From IMG/VR virus record IMGVR_UViG_3300020050_002145: a stretch of 64,000 bases of DNA; one strand, given 5' to 3'. Positions 2,815 through 47,626 of the stretch are shown here, piece after piece. The notes beneath the pieces are model-generated. The model ran no database searches and was not told the DNA's origin. It was given only the letters and a program-made list of their open reading frames with translations. The first letter of the stretch is position 1. Every line of letters starts with the position of its first letter. The stretch comes from an uncultured virus (IMG/VR IMGVR_UViG_3300020050_002145) (taxonomy: Duplodnaviria; Heunggongvirae; Uroviricota; Caudoviricetes). Both the position numbers and the translations under genes were made by a program.

Positions 2815-2858
2815 ACCTTCCATATTTAACGGGGGCTGAGCGGCAGCCCCCTAACCGT
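2815..2858. repeat. intergenic hairpin+RBS repeat, copy 2
   Basis: 42/44 identical to 2521-2564. Confidence 0.9.
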
Positions 2859-2859
2859 A

Positions 2860-3048
2860 TTACCAGCGTGCAGTCATCAGCTTGCCACGCTTACCTATCA
2901 TTACCTTAGCTTCATACGGGTACAACCTAGACCATTCAAGCGCATCATCTTCACACTTAAAGAACTTGACTTGCTTTACTGTGCGCCATTCAATGCAGAC
3001 CATGTAGCAAGTTAACCATAACCAAAGAGTGCGTATACGTTCTAACAT
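2860..3048 (-). CDS. small early hypothetical protein
   Basis: GAAAGGT RBS; first gene after the promoter at 3098-3126. Confidence 0.6.
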   Translation of the reverse strand: MLERIRTLWLWLTCYMVCIEWRTVKQVKFFKCEDDALEWSRLYPYEAKVMIGKRGKLMTARW

Positions 3049-9456: not shown

Positions 9457-9895
9457 TAACAGACTTACTCGTGAACTTGAATCCCGTAAAGAAGTAGAAC
9501 GTCCAAAGCAATGGGCGCCTGCTGAGACACTACCAGAACCGGATAAGCAGCCGGGTTTTGCGTATAGATGGATTCGTATTTCGACCTTAGATAAGGCCGA
9601 TCCCCGCAACTTGTCAGGCAAGCTACGCGAAGGATGGGAACCTGTGAAAGTGTCGGAACAACCAAGATTTCAACTGCTAATTGATCCTAACAGTCGTTTT
9701 AAAGACAACGTTGAGATCGGTGGGTTATTGTTGTGCAAGACGCCACAAGAGTTTGTAGATCAACGGAATAAACATTTCGATAATCAGACACAAGCTCAGA
9801 CGACTGCAATTGACAATAGCTTTATGCGAGAAAGCGATGTACGTATGCCACTCTTTGCGGAGCGCAAATCGTCTACATCGTTTGGTAAAGGTTAA
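9449..9895 (+). CDS. conserved head-module protein
   Basis: YRWIR...REGWEPV...GGLLLCK; coupled to the scaffold gene. Confidence 0.75.
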   Translation: MANNRLTRELESRKEVERPKQWAPAETLPEPDKQPGFAYRWIRISTLDKADPRNLSGKLREGWEPVKVSEQPRFQLLIDPNSRFKDNVEIGGLLLCKTPQEFVDQRNKHFDNQTQAQTTAIDNSFMRESDVRMPLFAERKSSTSFGKG

Positions 9896-9919
9896 TTTAA
9901 AACTTTTTTGGAGTAAATT

Positions 9920-10750
9920 ATGGCATATCCTGTTGTAGATGCCCCTTACGGGCTACAGCCGGTCAATTTGATCGGAGGTCAGGTATTTGCGGGTTCTACT
10001 CGTGAATATCCAATCACTAATGGTTACTCTACGAACATTTTCTACGGTGATTACGTAGGTTTGTCTCGTGGTGAAATCGTCCGCTTGTCTGTGTCTACTG
10101 GCACAGCAGGTAACCAAACCGGCATCTTTTTGGGATGTTCGTTTACCAACCCCGTCACAAAACAAAAGCAATTTCAACAATTCTGGCCTGCATCAACTGC
10201 GGCTGGTGATGCAGTAGCTATTGTTTCTGACGACCCTGATGCAGTTTTCAAAGGTGTTGTTTGCTCTGCTACTACTGTTATTGCTTCTGGCGCTCGCGCC
10301 ATGATCGGTCAAAATTTGGCAATGATCAACAATACAGGTAGTCTCGCATCCGGCAACTCTAGGAACGCAATCTTGGCTCCTACTGATACCCCTGCCACCA
10401 CTTCTTCCTTGCCCGTTCGCGTGCTTGGTTTAGTGCCTGACACGGCTGTTTCGCGTGGTACGGCAACGTATACCAGCATTTCTACTGCTACTGTGACCTG
10501 TTCGGCTCTGCCGTTTGCGTTACCGATTGGCACTGATGTTGGTTCGCTGGATTCGAACGGTCAATATATCAGTTCGGGTTCTTTTGTTGATACCGCGGCT
10601 TCTGCCGGTGCTACCTCGTTTATCTTGAACCAAGCTCCTGCCACAGCTTTTGGCGCCAGCTCTACGCTTGTGTTTATGCAGTATCCAGAGATTCTGGTCA
10701 AGATTAACTTTGGTCAGCATCAGTATTACGCTGGCACCAGCATCGCTTAA
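9920..10750 (+). CDS. putative capsid decoration/cement protein
   Basis: APYGL.P, IFYGD.V, G.FLGC.F, V.DDPD..F motifs; directly before the major capsid gene. Confidence 0.7.
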   Translation: MAYPVVDAPYGLQPVNLIGGQVFAGSTREYPITNGYSTNIFYGDYVGLSRGEIVRLSVSTGTAGNQTGIFLGCSFTNPVTKQKQFQQFWPASTAAGDAVAIVSDDPDAVFKGVVCSATTVIASGARAMIGQNLAMINNTGSLASGNSRNAILAPTDTPATTSSLPVRVLGLVPDTAVSRGTATYTSISTATVTCSALPFALPIGTDVGSLDSNGQYISSGSFVDTAASAGATSFILNQAPATAFGASSTLVFMQYPEILVKINFGQHQYYAGTSIA

Positions 10751-10761
10751 GGAGAAACTAA

Positions 10762-11673
10762 ATGGCTATTTCACGCGCACAACTATTAAAAGAACTCTTA
10801 CCGGGCTTAAATGCTCTGTTTGGTCTTGAATATGCTCGTTACGGCGAAGAGCATAAAGAAATCTACGAAACCGAAACATCGGAACGTAGCTTCGAAGAAG
10901 AAACAAAACTGTCAGGCTTCAGCGCTGCACCTGTTAAAAACGAAGGCTCTGCTATTCGTTACGACAATGCACAAGAAGCATGGACAGCACGATACAACCA
11001 CGAAACAATCGCTTTGGGTTTCTCCTTAACTGAAGAAGCAATCGAAGATAACTTGTATGACTCGTTATCAGCTCGTTACACCAAAGCTTTAGCTCGTGCA
11101 ATGTCTTACACCAAGCAAGTTAAAGCTGCAAACGTATTGAACAATGGCTTCTCATCGGCTTATACCGGCGGTGACGGCGTATCGTTGTTTAACACTGCGC
11201 ATCCTTTAGTTTCTGGTGGCACCAACGGTAACACTCCATCAACTGCTGCTGACTTGAACGAAACTTCGTTGGAAAACGCTGTTATTCAAATCGCTGCTTG
11301 GACTGATGAACGTGGTCTGTTGATCGCTGCTAAGCCTAAGAAATTGATCGTTCCACCAGCGTTACAATTCGTTGCAACTCGTTTGTTAGAGACCGAATTA
11401 CGTGTCGGTACAACTGATAACGATATCAACGCATTGAAGAACAATGGTTCGATCCCAGAAGGCTACACGATCAATCACTTCTTGACCGACACAAACGGCT
11501 GGTATTTAACTACTGACGTTCCAAACGGCATGAAGCATTTTGTTCGTAGCCCACTGGCTAACTCAATGGACGGCGACTTCGATACTGGTAATGTACGTTA
11601 CAAGTCTCGTGAGCGTTATTCGTTCGGTTGGTCTGATCCGCTTGGTATGTACGGTTCACCCGGTGCAGCCTAA
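10762..11673 (+). CDS. major capsid protein (HK97 fold, Mu gpT-like)
   Basis: Strong AAGGAG RBS, high-expression codon usage, PKKLIVPPALQF and RERYSFGWSDP motifs, followed by a terminator. Confidence 0.92.
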   Translation: MAISRAQLLKELLPGLNALFGLEYARYGEEHKEIYETETSERSFEEETKLSGFSAAPVKNEGSAIRYDNAQEAWTARYNHETIALGFSLTEEAIEDNLYDSLSARYTKALARAMSYTKQVKAANVLNNGFSSAYTGGDGVSLFNTAHPLVSGGTNGNTPSTAADLNETSLENAVIQIAAWTDERGLLIAAKPKKLIVPPALQFVATRLLETELRVGTTDNDINALKNNGSIPEGYTINHFLTDTNGWYLTTDVPNGMKHFVRSPLANSMDGDFDTGNVRYKSRERYSFGWSDPLGMYGSPGAA

Positions 11674-11682
11674 GTAATTGGG

Positions 11683-11706
11683 AGGGGGCTTCGGCCCCCT
11701 TTTTTA
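11683..11706 (+). terminator. intrinsic terminator after the capsid gene
   Basis: AGGGGGC-TTCG-GCCCCCT followed by a T-run. Confidence 0.9.
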
Positions 11707-11716
11707 TGGAGTAGAT

Positions 11717-11920
11717 ATGAATATCTTTATACAAAAACAGATTGAATCATCAGAACGTCTATACAAAATGATGCTAGATGACCATAAAAACCGCGTCAAA
11801 AGCGTGGCAGATGTATACGAGGTAAGTGAAAGTCTGCAAAAAAAGCTACGTGAACGTGATGAAGAGATAACAAAACTACGACGCCAGTTACGTGCCTATG
11901 AAGCAATAGAACGCATGTGA
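11717..11920 (+). CDS. small coiled-coil hypothetical protein
   Basis: GGAG RBS; heptad-like pattern. Confidence 0.6.
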   Translation: MNIFIQKQIESSERLYKMMLDDHKNRVKSVADVYEVSESLQKKLRERDEEITKLRRQLRAYEAIERM

Positions 11921-12000
11921 CCTGTTTTTGATTTGTAATATTCGTGGTGTAGTATTAAATGGCAGCCAGTCGGGGTTGCTATTTTGCTATGGAGAATATT

Positions 12001-12228
12001 ATGAAAGTGATAATTTCGTTTGAGTGTGATTACGAAGAATTGTTTGACGTTGTCGAATACGAAGAGTACGAAGATGATGAAGATGGCGTTGAGTACGACG
12101 AAGACGGCGTTGCTTGGTGGTTCGATGAAGAAGAAGAAATCTGGTACTTCTACGATGAAGACGCAGATGACTGGTTCGAGTGGGATGAGTCTGAGTACTA
12201 CGAGTTTGAAGAAGAAGTAGTTGCTTAA
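12001..12228 (+). CDS. highly acidic, aromatic-rich small protein (DNA-mimic candidate)
   Basis: 35 of 75 residues are D/E, 19 aromatic, one Lys; GGAG RBS. Confidence 0.7.
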   Translation: MKVIISFECDYEELFDVVEYEEYEDDEDGVEYDEDGVAWWFDEEEEIWYFYDEDADDWFEWDESEYYEFEEEVVA

Positions 12229-12596
12229 TTTAAGGAGGCTTCGGCCTCCTTTTTCTTTTTCTTTGCTTGGTATTCTGCGTCATGTAACTTACGGTGACAG
12301 TTTGCGCATAGTACAATACAGCGTTCTTCTATTTCTTTTAATGCGCCTTTGTAATTACCGTTTGTAAGCAGCCTATTAACTTTTTTATTGTCTTTTGCTC
12401 TTACAACGTGGTGAAAATCAAAGGTTGCGGGGTGAGTTTCTCCACACTGTATACGCATTAAAGTGGCTTTATAGTCTCGCCATTTTTTCCTATACTTTTC
12501 TTTATTGGACTTGATAGTTGCTTTAATTTTAGCTGTATGCTTAGCGTAATGCCGTTTGGCTATTTCTTTCTTTTTCTCTTTATCTTTAACCGGCAT
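12225..12596 (-). CDS. HNH endonuclease
   Basis: Basic N-terminus; QCGETHPATFDFHH...CIVLCANCHRKLH; likely start MPVKDKE. Confidence 0.85.
   Translation of the reverse strand: MPVKDKEKKKEIAKRHYAKHTAKIKATIKSNKEKYRKKWRDYKATLMRIQCGETHPATFDFHHVVRAKDNKKVNRLLTNGNYKGALKEIEERCIVLCANCHRKLHDAEYQAKKKKKEAEASLN
12231..12262 (+). terminator. intrinsic terminator
   Basis: AAGGAGGC-TTCG-GCCTCCTT followed by a T-run after the acidic ORF. Confidence 0.8.
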
Positions 12597-12661
12597 ACGT
12601 ATCTTAGTTAGGGTTAAAAAGCGTTTGCATTTTATAGTAGATATGGTATAACAGCAACATT

Positions 12662-12730
12662 CCGGGATTATCCGGTACGTCAAATAGCCCCGGCTAGCAA
12701 CATGCAGATTGGCGTACTTAACTCGCATGT
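12662..12730 (+). ncRNA. candidate kissing-loop cis-regulatory RNA in a 5' leader
   Basis: Two hairpins (12662-12693, 12700-12730) whose loops are complementary over 9 bp; ends at the GAGGA RBS; promoter-like TTGCAT...TATAAC upstream. Confidence 0.55.
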
Positions 12731-12744
12731 GAGGAAAATTTATC

Positions 12745-13439
12745 ATGGGTTTCGCTACGCACCTTGGTCCTTGGTTATTAGGCACCGTTAAAAATACTAC
12801 TGGAACAACTTCCGGTACCGTTCGCAATTTAGGCGCAACTGTTGTTGCCCAAACCATTCCTGTAACTTTTAATACGTTCGCTAACTTAACCGGCACTTTA
12901 GGTTCAATCCCTGCTGGCTCGTTAATTACTGGCGTTCAGATCATTACGTCTACTGACTTTAGCTCCGCTACTACATTAAAGATTACTATCGGTGGTACTG
13001 ATGTAGCTANNNNNNNNNNNNNNNNNNNNNNNNNNNNNNNNNNNNNNNNNNNNNNNNNNNNNNNNNNNNNNNNNNNNNNNNNNNNNNNNNNNNNNNNNNN
13101 NNNNNNNNNACCGGCACTTTAGGTTCAATCCCTGCTGGCTCGTTAATTACTGGCGTTCAGATCATTACGTCTACTGACTTTAGCTCCGCTACTACATTAA
13201 AGATTACTATCGGTGGTACTGATGTAGCTACAGCTTCTACTATTACTTCAACTGGCTTTATTAGTGTAACAATAGCTTCTACTTTCGCTGCTACTGCTGC
13301 TAATACTGGCACTACTGACGACTTGATTACTTACACTGCTACTGGTACTTCTTTAACTACTGGTGCTGCTACTGTTGTAATTCAGTATGTTGTTCGTGAC
13401 TCTAACGGCAACGCTAACCCTACTGCTACTCAACAATAA
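12745..13439 (+). CDS. Thr-rich virion structural protein, split by an assembly gap
   Basis: Removing the 100 Ns and one copy of the 121-bp duplication gives a continuous 157-aa ORF ending ...VVIQYVVRDSNGNANPTATQQ. Confidence 0.75.
13010..13109. other. scaffold gap (100 N) flanked by an exact 121-bp duplication
   Basis: 12889-13009 is identical to 13110-13230. Confidence 0.95.
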
Positions 13440-13454
13440 TAGGGAGGCATCATC

Positions 13455-13733
13455 ATGATGCAAACAGACGTTAAAAGTGCGGCAGCGGCAGCAAATGCGA
13501 CGACCACTATTTTTGGTGGTCCCACACGCATCAAAGGCATATCTATTAGCTATTCTACTGGTGCAACGGTTGTTTTAAACGACGGCACAGGCGGTACAGC
13601 GGTGTTCTCTTTTACTGCACCAGCGGCGGCGGGTTCTATCTACATGATGTTCCCCGGAGAAGGCATTAAATGTAACTCCAACGTTTCTGCTGTGGTAAGC
13701 GCAACGACTACGGCGGTTGTGTTCTATGGCTAA
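13455..13733 (+). CDS. small virion protein (beta-sandwich-like)
   Basis: GGAGG RBS; MQTDVK...R.KGI...PGEGI...VFYG. Confidence 0.75.
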   Translation: MMQTDVKSAAAAANATTTIFGGPTRIKGISISYSTGATVVLNDGTGGTAVFSFTAPAAAGSIYMMFPGEGIKCNSNVSAVVSATTTAVVFYG

Positions 13734-13971
13734 GACTCCGGCATGGACGAGGAAAGAAGGCAAAAATCCAAAAGGTGGATTGAATGCCAAAGGTCGTGCT
13801 TCTGCGAAAAAGCAAGGCATGAATTTGAAACCTCCCCAGCCGGAAGGCGGCGCAAGGAAAGAGTCGTTCTGCGCCCGTATGTCAGGTATGAAAAAGAAGC
13901 TTACATCTGCAAAGACAGCGAACGATCCGAATAGCCGGATAAATAAGTCATTGAGGGCGTGGAAATGCTAG
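13726..13971 (+). CDS. small basic protein (DUF6321-like)
   Basis: AWTRKEGKNPKGGLNAKGRAS...SFCARMSGM...SRINKSLRAWKC. Confidence 0.75.
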   Translation: MAKTPAWTRKEGKNPKGGLNAKGRASAKKQGMNLKPPQPEGGARKESFCARMSGMKKKLTSAKTANDPNSRINKSLRAWKC

Positions 13972-14156
13972 ATCAACACGAAGCTACTAAACACGCTATT
14001 GATGCGGTGTCTGTCTTAACAGTATTAGGTACTCTTATGGAAGCGTTACCCGCTATTGCGGCGTTATTTACTATTATCTGGACGGCTATTCGCATTTGGG
14101 AAACCAAAACTGTTCAGAAGTTTATTGCTGAGTTTAAAGGAAAAGATAATGGCTGA
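13965..14156 (+). CDS. small membrane protein (holin-like)
   Basis: Hydrophobic segments ...LPAIAALFTIIWTAIRIWET with a basic tail. Confidence 0.6.
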   Translation: MLDQHEATKHAIDAVSVLTVLGTLMEALPAIAALFTIIWTAIRIWETKTVQKFIAEFKGKDNG

Positions 14157-14505
14157 TATGAAAATAAAATTTGGGGGTAGGGAATTAGAAGTAGACGATA
14201 TGGTAGAACGTAACCCAAAAAAATCAAGGGACGTTAAACCTCTCCCTCTCCCTAAATCTACAACTCCTAAAAAAATAAAAGAGTATTCAACGCCAACCAA
14301 AGACAAGCAGTCTGAAAGCAGTAAGCAGGAGCAAGAGAACGAACGCCTAGATAAAAAACAAGAAGATGAGTATAAGAAATATCAAGAAGGTGAAAAGACT
14401 CGCCTAAAAGATCAGGGTTCTAGTTTTTTCAAAAAAGGTGGCAAAGTTTCTTCTGCGTCTAAACGTGCAGATGGTTGTGCAATTCGTGGTAAAACTAGAG
14501 CTTAA
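14149..14505 (+). CDS. charged protein with C-terminal KKGG..SASKRADG..GKT module
   Basis: Coupled start; C-terminal module shared with the 14521 and 15465 ORFs. Confidence 0.7.
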   Translation: MADMKIKFGGRELEVDDMVERNPKKSRDVKPLPLPKSTTPKKIKEYSTPTKDKQSESSKQEQENERLDKKQEDEYKKYQEGEKTRLKDQGSSFFKKGGKVSSASKRADGCAIRGKTRA

Positions 14506-14520
14506 TTAAGGAGTATTAAA

Positions 14521-14838
14521 ATGGCTACAAAAATGAACGCAGGTTTTATGGCAATGATGAAGAAAAAAACAAGTGATAAGCCAATGAAAAAAGAAGGTAT
14601 GGCTAAGACTAAGAAGATGGCTATGGGTGGTTACGCCGAAGGTGGTATGCCTATGGTTATGAAAGATGGCAAAAAAGTACCTTCATTTGCTGCTGATGGC
14701 AAAGGTAAGATGGCTAAAGGCGGTATGGCTAAGACTAAGAAGATGGCTTCTGGTGGCTCCGCTTCGTCACGTGCTGATGGTATCGCTGTTAAAGGCAAAA
14801 CCAAAGGTAAGATGATGGCTAACGGCGGTAAGTGCTAA
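14521..14838 (+). CDS. Lys/Met/Gly-rich small protein with repeated MAxGG motifs
   Basis: AAGGAG RBS; MAMGG, YAEGG, MAKGG, MASGG, MANGG. Confidence 0.8.
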   Translation: MATKMNAGFMAMMKKKTSDKPMKKEGMAKTKKMAMGGYAEGGMPMVMKDGKKVPSFAADGKGKMAKGGMAKTKKMASGGSASSRADGIAVKGKTKGKMMANGGKC

Positions 14839-14847
14839 GGATTAGCT

Positions 14848-15117
14848 ATGAGACCTTCACGTGGAATGGGGGCTATTCGCTCCTCCAAGATGCCTAAAAC
14901 TACAGTTAAACGGGACGGTAATGAGCCTGTTAAGTTGTACAAAAAAGGTGGTGGGGTCAATGCTGCAGGTAACTACACCAAGCCCGGTATGCGTAAAGCT
15001 ATGTTTGAAAGTATTAAAGCCCGTGCAGTTCAGGGTACAGGTGCAGGGCAGTGGTCAGCTCGTAAGGCGCAGTTACTTGCAAAGAACTATAAAGCTAAAG
15101 GCGGCGGTTACAAGTGA
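14848..15117 (+). CDS. basic protein carrying the N-terminal half of a DUF5872-like domain
   Basis: YTKP..R...GQWSARKAQLLA..YK..GGGY. Confidence 0.7.
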   Translation: MRPSRGMGAIRSSKMPKTTVKRDGNEPVKLYKKGGGVNAAGNYTKPGMRKAMFESIKARAVQGTGAGQWSARKAQLLAKNYKAKGGGYK

Positions 15118-15347
15118 AAGCCCCACAACAATCGCTTAAAGATTGGGGAGACCAGAAATGGCGAACCAAAAGTGGGAAGCCCTCGTCCAAGACAGGTGAA
15201 CGATATTTGCCTGAAAAGGCGATTAAAGCTCTAACCACCGCAGAATATGCGGCGACTACCAAAGCAAAACGTACAGGTAAGAAAGCAGGAAAGCAGTTTG
15301 TTAAACAGCCGAAAGGCATAGCAAAGAAAACAGCGGGGTATAGATAA
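15114..15347 (+). CDS. basic protein, C-terminal half of a DUF5872-like domain
   Basis: Q.SL..W..Q.W.TKSG...ERYLP.KA...GKQFV. Confidence 0.7.
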   Translation: MKAPQQSLKDWGDQKWRTKSGKPSSKTGERYLPEKAIKALTTAEYAATTKAKRTGKKAGKQFVKQPKGIAKKTAGYR

Positions 15348-15464
15348 TGGAAAAGCATACAGAACATACAAACGATTGCTTGATTGATATAGCAGGTCAG
15401 TGTAACTGTGACGCCATAACGGATGAACAGATAGACGCTGAGTTGTTAGAGAAAGAAGAAGCAA

Positions 15465-15788
15465 ATGACTGATAATTTTACGCCCGCAGAAAATGTTTTT
15501 CGTGTTGTAGACGGTAGGTATATGCACAACAATGAAGAGATTTCTAAAGCCGAGTTTGATAGGCGTAAGGCTGAAGCGGATAACGCTATGGGTGCTATGC
15601 GTGGGTCTGGACAGCGCAGTAAACCAATGACTATGCAAGAACGTAAATCAAAATCATTTTCTGATATGGAAGGCCTGAAAAAAGGCGGTAAGGTTAAGAA
15701 AATGGCTTCTGGCGGCAAGGTTTCTTCCGCTTCCAAACGTGCAGATGGCTGCGCTACCAAAGGTAAAACCAAAGGGAAAATGGTTTAA
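15465..15788 (+). CDS. protein with C-terminal KKGG/MASGG..SASKRADGCA.KGKTKG module
   Basis: Shared C-terminal module; coupled to the next gene. Confidence 0.7.
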   Translation: MTDNFTPAENVFRVVDGRYMHNNEEISKAEFDRRKAEADNAMGAMRGSGQRSKPMTMQERKSKSFSDMEGLKKGGKVKKMASGGKVSSASKRADGCATKGKTKGKMV

Positions 15789-46973: not shown

Positions 46974-47228
46974 TTAGATGTCATCATCAGGGTTTAAATC
47001 CAATTCCAACTGACGAGGATCAGAGGTTTTGGTCGGGGGTGTTACGGCATCAGCGGGCGCACGACGTAATGCTGCGTCAACGTCAGCCATTTTAAAACGG
47101 TAGGTGTTGCCAACTTTTAAATAATCGGTAGATGTAAGTATTCCGGTTTTAATCCAACTGCGTACCGTAGATACAGACACATTAAAAAACTTGGCTAGGT
47201 CGGTAATTGTTACATAGTTCTCAGTCAT
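46974..47228 (-). CDS. excisionase/AlpA-like helix-turn-helix protein
   Basis: VTI.DLAKFFNVS.STVRSWI..G...KVG.TYRF. Confidence 0.8.
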   Translation of the reverse strand: MTENYVTITDLAKFFNVSVSTVRSWIKTGILTSTDYLKVGNTYRFKMADVDAALRRAPADAVTPPTKTSDPRQLELDLNPDDDI

Positions 47229-47626
47229 TATGCTTTCCTTATAGTTACACTGTACTCACTATCTACGTTTAGCCCCGGCGGTAGTAAGTCAGGATTTTCC
47301 TCTAAAAATGTTTGTGTATTACCTTGATGTAGCCGCTTCTCAAACAACTCCGGCACATTGTGTTCAACAACAAACTTGCCCATAGACTCCCAATCGTTAG
47401 TCCAGTACCGCTTCTTAATTGTTCGGTAGAACAACCCTTCTGAGGTACGTACAGTCTCTACGTTGTTTGCCTTACAGTGCTCAAGCAAGGCAGCTTTCAC
47501 CTGCTTCATACCGTTTTCGATCTGCTCTAATTCTTCGTCATGTGCCTTGACTAGGGCTTCTCGTTTAGTACGCATCTTGATGTAAACACGAACTAATTTA
47601 TCTACTGACACTTGTGAATCGCTCAT
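47228..47626 (-). CDS. conserved replication-module protein
   Basis: LV.VYIK.R...RT..G......W..DW...PPGLN. Confidence 0.75.
   Translation of the reverse strand: MSDSQVSVDKLVRVYIKMRTKREALVKAHDEELEQIENGMKQVKAALLEHCKANNVETVRTSEGLFYRTIKKRYWTNDWESMGKFVVEHNVPELFEKRLHQGNTQTFLEENPDLLPPGLNVDSEYSVTIRKA

Follow-up and report, generated by a model that had tools for sequence, protein, structure and literature searches.

Comparative analysis of the window (the whole 64,000-nucleotide stretch of DNA examined here, which carries terminase, portal and major capsid genes and comes from a tailed phage) identified an RNA of about 70 bases in front of a likely cement gene that, judged from its relatives, is a pseudo-threefold junction of two helices (P3 and P2) and a third arm, with two loop pseudoknots and one unpaired purine on each junction strand, mostly as three GAC triplets. 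We propose that this RNA is a translational OFF leader switched by a protein that binds the three-adenine junction, a reading to which we assign a probability of roughly 0.55. Covariation among relatives shows the helices, the junction, a fixed spacing to the AUG and, in many of them, pairing to the Shine-Dalgarno (SD) sequence or the AUG; repression by the folded state and the action of a trans-acting regulator are what we infer.

Fold of the leader RNA

The sequence-only reading had described a 10-bp stem A and an 8-bp stem C with one bulge, whose loops pair over 9 bp in an ABA'CB'C' topology, and all of these pairings are present where it had located them. Evidence from the single sequence is weak, with a helix of at least 9 bp occurring in 169 of 2000 shuffles of the 69 nt and the nested fold alone giving z = +1.35. 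Homologous leaders were collected from 80 IMG/VR loci taken by homology to the downstream protein; four of these have too little upstream DNA, one (L044) has no leader and the remainder show the element. A sequence-only MAFFT alignment (A1) of 54 leaders, comprising the window and 53 of these loci, gave a covariation score that was reached by none of 500 shuffles, while slid controls gave 30–38% pairing. The 9-bp kissing helix P3 (12675-83 with 12709-17; all features of the leader lie on the plus strand) covaries strongly in these 54 leaders, with 98.6% pairing and double changes at nine of nine pairs (0/500 shuffles), which bears out the proposed loop–loop pairing. An independent test used a pattern that fixes P1 and P2 only, and among the 120 loci retrieved (111 unique) P3 extends to at least 8 bp in 90 of the 111, compared with 10% in swap controls.

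Relatives show four helices and a lone pair in place of the three helices first proposed, a 3-bp P2 and a C-G/U-A pair having been missed. The outer 5 bp of stem A are conserved as P1, in which the 5'-terminal CCGGG (12662-66) pairs with CCCGG in the P2 loop (12689-93); this helix is 91.5% paired with double changes at four of five pairs, and reads CCAAG, CUAGG, CUGUA or CCUAG in relatives. The inner 4-bp extension of stem A is 49% paired and was discarded, its bases forming P2 (12685-87/12694-96), which is 100% paired with double changes at all three pairs. Similarly, 6 bp of stem C are conserved; the 2 bp proposed beyond the bulge reach 41% pairing, since G12707 has C12698 as its partner. 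This lone closing pair of the third arm is kept in all 54 leaders (CG in 45, UA in 9), and when the parse leaves it free it is Watson-Crick in 119 of 125 leaders, switching between C-G and U-A.

The arms meet in a three-way junction (12684-12708) in which A12684, G12697 and A12708 are unpaired. With no constraint placed on linker identity, the best three-way junction has a single unpaired A on each strand in 127 of 166 protein-selected leaders compared with 28 of 496 shuffles, and GAC/GAC/GAC is its commonest form (77). Among 106 protein-selected full leaders, the three junction purines are A in 103, A in 96 with G in 10, and A in 106, and one junction A is the only invariant base among the 18 positions scored. 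The window copy carries G instead of A at one linker and U-A as the first P2 pair.

In P4, the third-arm loop ACAUGC (12700-05) pairs with GCAUGU (12725-30), so that its 3' end lies at -15, directly before the SD sequence GAGGA (12731-35) of an initiation region that runs to 12747 with its AUG at 12745; the fold thus ends at the SD, as had been noted. P4 is 72.6% paired on alignment A1, where MAFFT misaligns it, so it was retested without an alignment and was high-scoring in 360 of 370 full-type leaders (swap mean 151, maximum 176). A possible alternative 5' hairpin (12662-66 with 12671-75) excludes P1 and vice versa. It reaches at least 5 bp in 117 of 367 leaders against about 27 in shuffles and is 83% paired over three pairs, with a clade bias that makes it suggestive only.

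An Rfam model search of the window and of 20 full-form loci returned nothing credible, and neither the window nor two sets of 20 loci, one fetched by pattern and one chosen for diversity, matched an Rfam ribozyme or riboswitch. A weak model match elsewhere in the window (47226-47307, minus strand, 19.1 bits), located before an ATG, lacks the helices and was taken as chance.

Promoter, genomic setting and distribution

Upstream of the RNA lies a predicted promoter (12625-12652) with a -35 element TTGCAT (12625-30) and an extended -10 element TG-G-TATAAC (12644-52), which would place the transcription start near 12658-60 and make the RNA the 5' end of its own transcript. This promoter-like sequence, already pointed out in the sequence-only reading, is not listed by a consensus promoter scan of the window, although it is supported by comparison across leaders: 282 of 367 full-type leaders have a -10-like hexamer that ends 6–11 nt ahead of P1 (67 on average in shuffles, at most 88), and in 60 of 101 leaders of the Mu type described below such a hexamer ends 8–9 nt before the core. 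The window scan found no terminator-like site between the RNA and the cement gene. The junction-to-AUG distance is 25–43 nt, compared with 34–1967 nt from the capsid stop to the RNA (measurable for 270 of 370 leaders, 42 of them exceeding 200 nt), and on this comparison the RNA is the leader of the likely cement gene and is not tied to the capsid gene. The suggestion that the RNA is a compact structured leader, serving as a translational switch or as a site for protein binding, is supported by the conserved promoter, the fixed AUG distance and the compensated SD or AUG pairing, all read from sequence comparison.

In 4 of 19 listed metatranscriptome runs, contigs span portions of the leader, although contigs cannot show start, strand or level, and one related contig runs through the promoter. 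For Pelagibacter phage HTVC027P, the available part of an RNA-seq study (PMC12753301) gives gp62 as a late gene with average TPM values of 12,786, 22,241 and 28,568 at 9, 12 and 15 h, which is 2.4–3.7 times the gp60 mRNA (3,456, 8,343 and 11,866) at these times; this is only suggestive of a separate gp62 promoter because the short upstream gene gp61 is likewise high. In the same data, the ratio of cement to capsid mRNA is 1.23 at 9 h and 0.38 at 15 h (PMC12753301), a drop that was rejected as a sign of regulation since gp60 and gp63 fall similarly.

The major capsid gene (10762-11673, plus strand) encodes a Mu-like gpT-related protein (PHROG 371; Pfam Mu-like_gpT, PF10124, on the homologue from relative L002) and is followed by a terminator-like hairpin at 11684-11705, read directly from the sequence. 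The gene starting at 12745 lies about 1 kb past the capsid stop, beyond a variable insertion (11711-12590) after the capsid terminator. The insertion contains a small coiled-coil-like ORF, an ORF whose product is extremely acidic and rich in aromatic residues (11959-12228), and an HNH endonuclease gene in convergent orientation (12228-12590, minus strand; PHROG 3106, E 5.5e-14), with a terminator-like hairpin (12232-12251) between the last two. Locus comparison showed that the HNH gene is missing from many relatives, and that the stretch from capsid gene to leader is a hotspot for insertions in relatives. Past the cement gene, at 13717-15788, several small ORFs in succession encode very basic products with KMAKGG-like repeats, which are candidate RNA or DNA binders.

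Two relatives have atypical loci. In L044 (~2830-3003) the capsid coding sequence is joined straight to the cement gene, with neither terminator nor leader, through a deletion or misassembly. In the 86.9 kb record G000, the whole morphogenesis region recurs about 62 kb later at 65–94% identity (e.g. 9629-13009 and 71959-75366), and this diverged repeat includes a second leader at 75014 whose kissing helix carries compensatory changes. A second gene target was rejected for this copy, which is part of the whole-region repeat of a record that is probably a chimera of two related phages. The RNA is present in one copy per genome unit.

The likely cement (decoration) gene (12745 to approximately 13440, plus strand) encodes 157–158 aa in relatives and is interrupted in the window by an assembly gap (N, 13010-13109); around it, at 12889-13230, the 100-N gap is flanked on both sides by a 121-bp exact duplication, an assembly artefact. 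The L002 homologue, a relative's protein that is 97% identical, models as a jelly roll (pLDDT 81) and matches Pam1 capsid chain H (Z 9.9, rmsd 2.8, 111 residues aligned), KHP30 cement (Z 9.6), a GP4 capsid chain (Z 9.5) and KHP40 trimeric cement (Z 9.3), with overall ranges of Z 9.3–9.9, rmsd 2.8–3.7 and 111–116 aligned residues and a Foldseek E of 1e-3. The protein is also 33% identical to a DSL-LC04 gene product annotated 'cement protein'; Pfam and PHROG do not name it, and the best PDB sequence match has E 0.3. Judged by its model, the product is likely to be a jelly-roll capsid cement protein. Across the family, products range from 55 to 213 aa in 23 unrelated families that have mainly an N-terminal T-T-F-x-G-P arm in common, so the locus has the appearance of a hypervariable surface-display cassette, with 23 unrelated bodies behind a shared N-terminal anchor. 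Beyond residue 20 the proteins are acidic (median net charge -3, K+R 2.8%), 10 of 245 being net positive. A cement homologue was predicted to form a trimer (ipSAE 0.93, best of three controls 0.00; pLDDT 81), the runs agreeing in at least 42% of contacts. Twenty of 30 solved pairs attain this mark, as does 1 of 23 single chains, and the prediction may reflect likeness to solved cement trimers. Residues 1-26 lie outside the predicted interface.

Among 50,697 annotated phage records, 23 match the capsid protein, including Pelagibacter phages HTVC023P (66% identity) and HTVC027P (64%), DSL-LC04 (63%) and Roseobacter phages CRP-901/902 (55–56%). Twelve of these 23 records were assessed for the leader: the full form was found by model in HTVC023P, DSL-LC04 and ct7L0027, weakly in HTVC027P (16.9 bits) and by eye in 023Pt_psg01, CRP-902 carries the Mu type, Pag-Yong1 a different structure, and five carry none. 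Searching the leader region against the 50,697 records with blastn gave no match. From pattern scans of IMG/VR, the number of stored stretches (not genomes) with full forms was estimated at ~4900, ~4400 and ~520 in three scans, and that with the Mu type at ~3400; because P1/P2 patterns were used to retrieve most full-type loci, the counts per class do not represent frequencies in the population. By these scans the RNA family is very common in lake and ocean phages. Five MAG contigs also carry the RNA, possibly as mis-binned phage, and so are no proof of host.

Relationship to Mu-gpT-DE and pairing into the initiation region

The Mu-gpT-DE RNA motif reportedly originates from Weinberg et al. 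2017. In Rfam it is RF03012, with 53 positions and the type 'Gene; sRNA'. This model matches CRP-902 (72.3 bits) and three IMG/VR loci at exactly the position of the leader, and gave no match at E ≤ 10 in the window or G000 (gathering cut-off 49 bits). The view that the RNA belongs to no known family is therefore correct in that it falls below the Rfam threshold, and incorrect in that its locus and junction core are common to Mu-gpT-DE. Both RNAs follow a gpT-like capsid gene and end at the next (cement) AUG, both have a core of the form helix-A-C..G hairpin-AC-loop-GA-helix, and both precede cement homologues at least 69% identical to that of CRP-902; marine full forms additionally share the Mu-gpT-DE loop (AGCCAAGA-like) and its pairing to the AUG. 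Whereas in the window form P1 and P4 are pseudoknots, P3 has 9 bp and lies upstream of the SD, and P2 has 3 bp, the Mu-gpT-DE model has a 4-bp outer helix with the SD (CAGGAG) as its 3' strand, a 5-bp hairpin and no pseudoknot, and the Rfam structure includes neither the lone pair nor the start-codon helix. P1 is absent from both the Mu-type form and a third, minimal form.

The long-form model does not detect Mu-type leaders and RF03012 does not detect long-form members, so kinship rests on the locus, the junction, the marine loop and the interchange of forms: 52 close cement homologues are preceded by 15 full, 19 Mu-type, 11 minimal and 7 other leaders. Compared in this way, the short marine variants are Rfam's orphan Mu-gpT-DE and the long full form, which appears to be its relative, is a larger variant of an RNA that Rfam describes only in its short version. 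Some leaders fall outside this scheme. L477 and L478 (~1105-1203) have a distinct multi-helix leader before a CRP-902-like cement gene, outside all three classes, and the minimal leaders of L464, L476, L513, L515 and L528 are degenerate, the P2 stem being lost and spaced GAC-like triplets and a hairpin with the SD retained. The Pag-Yong1 leader (L450, 3403-3510) is a different GC-rich structure in front of the cement gene; it has an A-CUG..CAG element and a loop that could pair with the SD region over 8 bp, and is possibly another form of switch.

A literature search, covering passages of the Weinberg 2017 main text and part of the Fremin 2023 text and tables, found no description of this fold or of a function for Mu-gpT-DE. 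The name 'Mu-gpT-DE' occurs in one work found, CaCoFold, whose accessible text lists two extra covariations for it under types 7/8 and not a new pseudoknot. Fremin 2023 recovered RF03012 six times, according to its accessible portion, and 'gpT' is absent from the main text of Weinberg 2017 as available.

For the position of P4, leaders were gathered by protein motif (464, of which 425 were unique and parsed), and after 35 low-scoring leaders were dropped, 370 were of full type. In these, P4 overlaps the SD in 124, ends within 3 nt before it in 147, covers the AUG in 64, ends farther off in 22 and is unclear in 13; the window copy belongs to the second group, with its SD unpaired. Relative to the AUG, 369 of the 370 have the 3' end of P4 between -18 and -6 or between +5 and +7. 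The ribosome initiation footprint extends from about -20 to +15, which places these P4 ends inside it.

In the Mu-gpT-DE form, a loop base covaries with base +5 in codon 2 (G-C in 81, C-G in 24) without exception in 105 of 105 leaders, a result reached by none of 2000 shuffles. These leaders came from 120 loci selected by a pattern that leaves the tested positions free, of which 116 were parsed and 106 were unique, one lacking G at +4. The swap requires at least 11 changes on a tree of the downstream protein, seven of them forced by well-supported branches, on a quick protein-body tree with many unresolved forks in which leader recombination could inflate the count. The full form shows the same swap (98 G-C, 2 C-G and 1 exception; n = 101). 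Support for position +6 is weak in the Mu type and falls below the chance level in the full type, and pairing at +7 does not exceed chance; therefore, the start-codon helix has 4 bp at its core. In the 11 minimal leaders, P3 itself pairs with the start codon in varying sequence, at no fewer than four of the first six positions in 10 of the 11, and the SD lies in the third loop. Because three architectures converge on covering the SD or the AUG, the folded state is read as OFF.

Proposed regulation, alternatives and comparison with known systems

In the proposed mechanism, the leader RNA would start at the predicted promoter and fold into the double-pseudoknot junction before the cement AUG, where the folded state would block ribosome loading, in the window copy sterically through a P4 end that adjoins the unpaired SD. 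A trans-acting protein at the junction would then shift the fold and match cement output to capsid assembly. Since the junction sequence is kept across architectures, it suggests a recognition site, and since the regulator must be conserved and the cement body is not, the candidates are a morphogenesis protein that these phages conserve, or spare cement trimers acting through free N-terminal arms. The acidic character of the cement proteins and their 23 unrelated families disfavour simple autoregulation, and another conserved late protein is at least as likely a regulator as the cement protein. Counting against the OFF leader is the SD itself, which is unpaired in the window copy and 169 others (22 of which have P4 ending more than 3 nt away), and no conserved alternative ON fold was established among the leaders, the 5' hairpin being clade-limited. 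We also considered, as a rather unlikely extension, that the pseudo-threefold junction of three GAC elements is read by a threefold protein, either an intermediate of capsid assembly or surplus cement trimers by way of their free, conserved N-terminal arms; the cement trimer with free arms, as predicted, matches a threefold junction.

The main rival, which we consider unlikely although deserving of attention, is a kinetic damper that needs no ligand: ribosomes would load only on nascent RNA before the knot closes, fixing cement output per transcript as in the MS2 maturation gene, and the junction adenines would be purely structural. The same covariation data fit this, the competing 5' hairpin could delay folding, and acidic cement proteins offer no obvious ligand; however, output could be lowered more cheaply by weakening the SD or the promoter, and the GAC-containing junction is kept across three otherwise different architectures, as expected of a recognition site. 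Conversely, the RNA could raise the output of a high-copy protein by stabilising the 5' end or enhancing ribosome loading. P1 pairs the inferred 5' end and gp62 mRNA is 2.4–3.7 times that of gp60 between 9 and 15 h in HTVC027P (PMC12753301, available part), but P1 is absent from Mu-type and minimal forms, the short upstream gp61 is also high, and compensated start-codon pairing is hard to square with enhancement, so we regard this as improbable.

A small molecule, ion or temperature sensed at the junction would suit a junction that is compact, has conserved purines and is linked to pairing of the SD or AUG. Such a riboswitch or thermosensor is distinctly improbable given that no Rfam riboswitch matched, that one base is invariant among 18 scored positions and that the controlled gene is structural and not metabolic. 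The compact double pseudoknot and its long loop–loop helices also recall a self-cleaving ribozyme or a pRNA-like trans-acting RNA with loops pairing between molecules. No ribozyme model matched, few bases are invariant, no terminator precedes the gene, the fold takes in the start codon in many relatives and the RNA is single-copy per genome unit, leaving this the most far-fetched of the readings; the ribozyme and nuclease-block functions offered in the sequence-only reading found no support.

If the OFF-leader reading holds, an orphan Rfam motif catalogued as a small RNA located downstream of a capsid gene becomes a member of a translational-leader family with a defined core and a testable mechanism. 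The RNA is present in cultured HTVC023P and HTVC027P, and the capsid/decoration balance is testable in HTVC027P on HTCC1062. Were the threefold reading also true, the leader would sense the state of capsid assembly through matched symmetry and shut off translation of the cement gene, and this feedback would be common to the most abundant known marine phage group; our literature search found no report of feedback by a symmetry-matched RNA sensor in dsDNA phage morphogenesis.

Among known phage RNAs, phi29-type pRNA is a stand-alone transcript with its own terminator, whereas here there is no terminator and the fold runs into the initiation region. T4 soc encodes a capsid decoration protein, and the helices in the T4 e, soc, 49 and I-TevI leaders form only on long early transcripts, a late promoter bypassing them; in contrast, the predicted promoter here is located upstream of the whole fold. 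In those T4 leaders the SD or AUG is sequestered in an inhibitory helix, according to the accessible part of one source (PMC3014915), and many leaders of the present family likewise pair the SD or AUG in a helix. The same part of that source (PMC3014915) describes a pseudoknot operator in the 5' leader of T4 gene 32, near the ribosome binding site, that mediates translational repression, and the leaders described here resemble it in placing a conserved structure in a phage 5' leader at the initiation region. However, the gene 32 operator is a simple two-stem knot that nucleates a cooperative ssDNA-binding protein on an unstructured tract (PMC3014915, same part), whereas here two knots are built on a three-way junction and pair directly into the initiation region of a structural gene.
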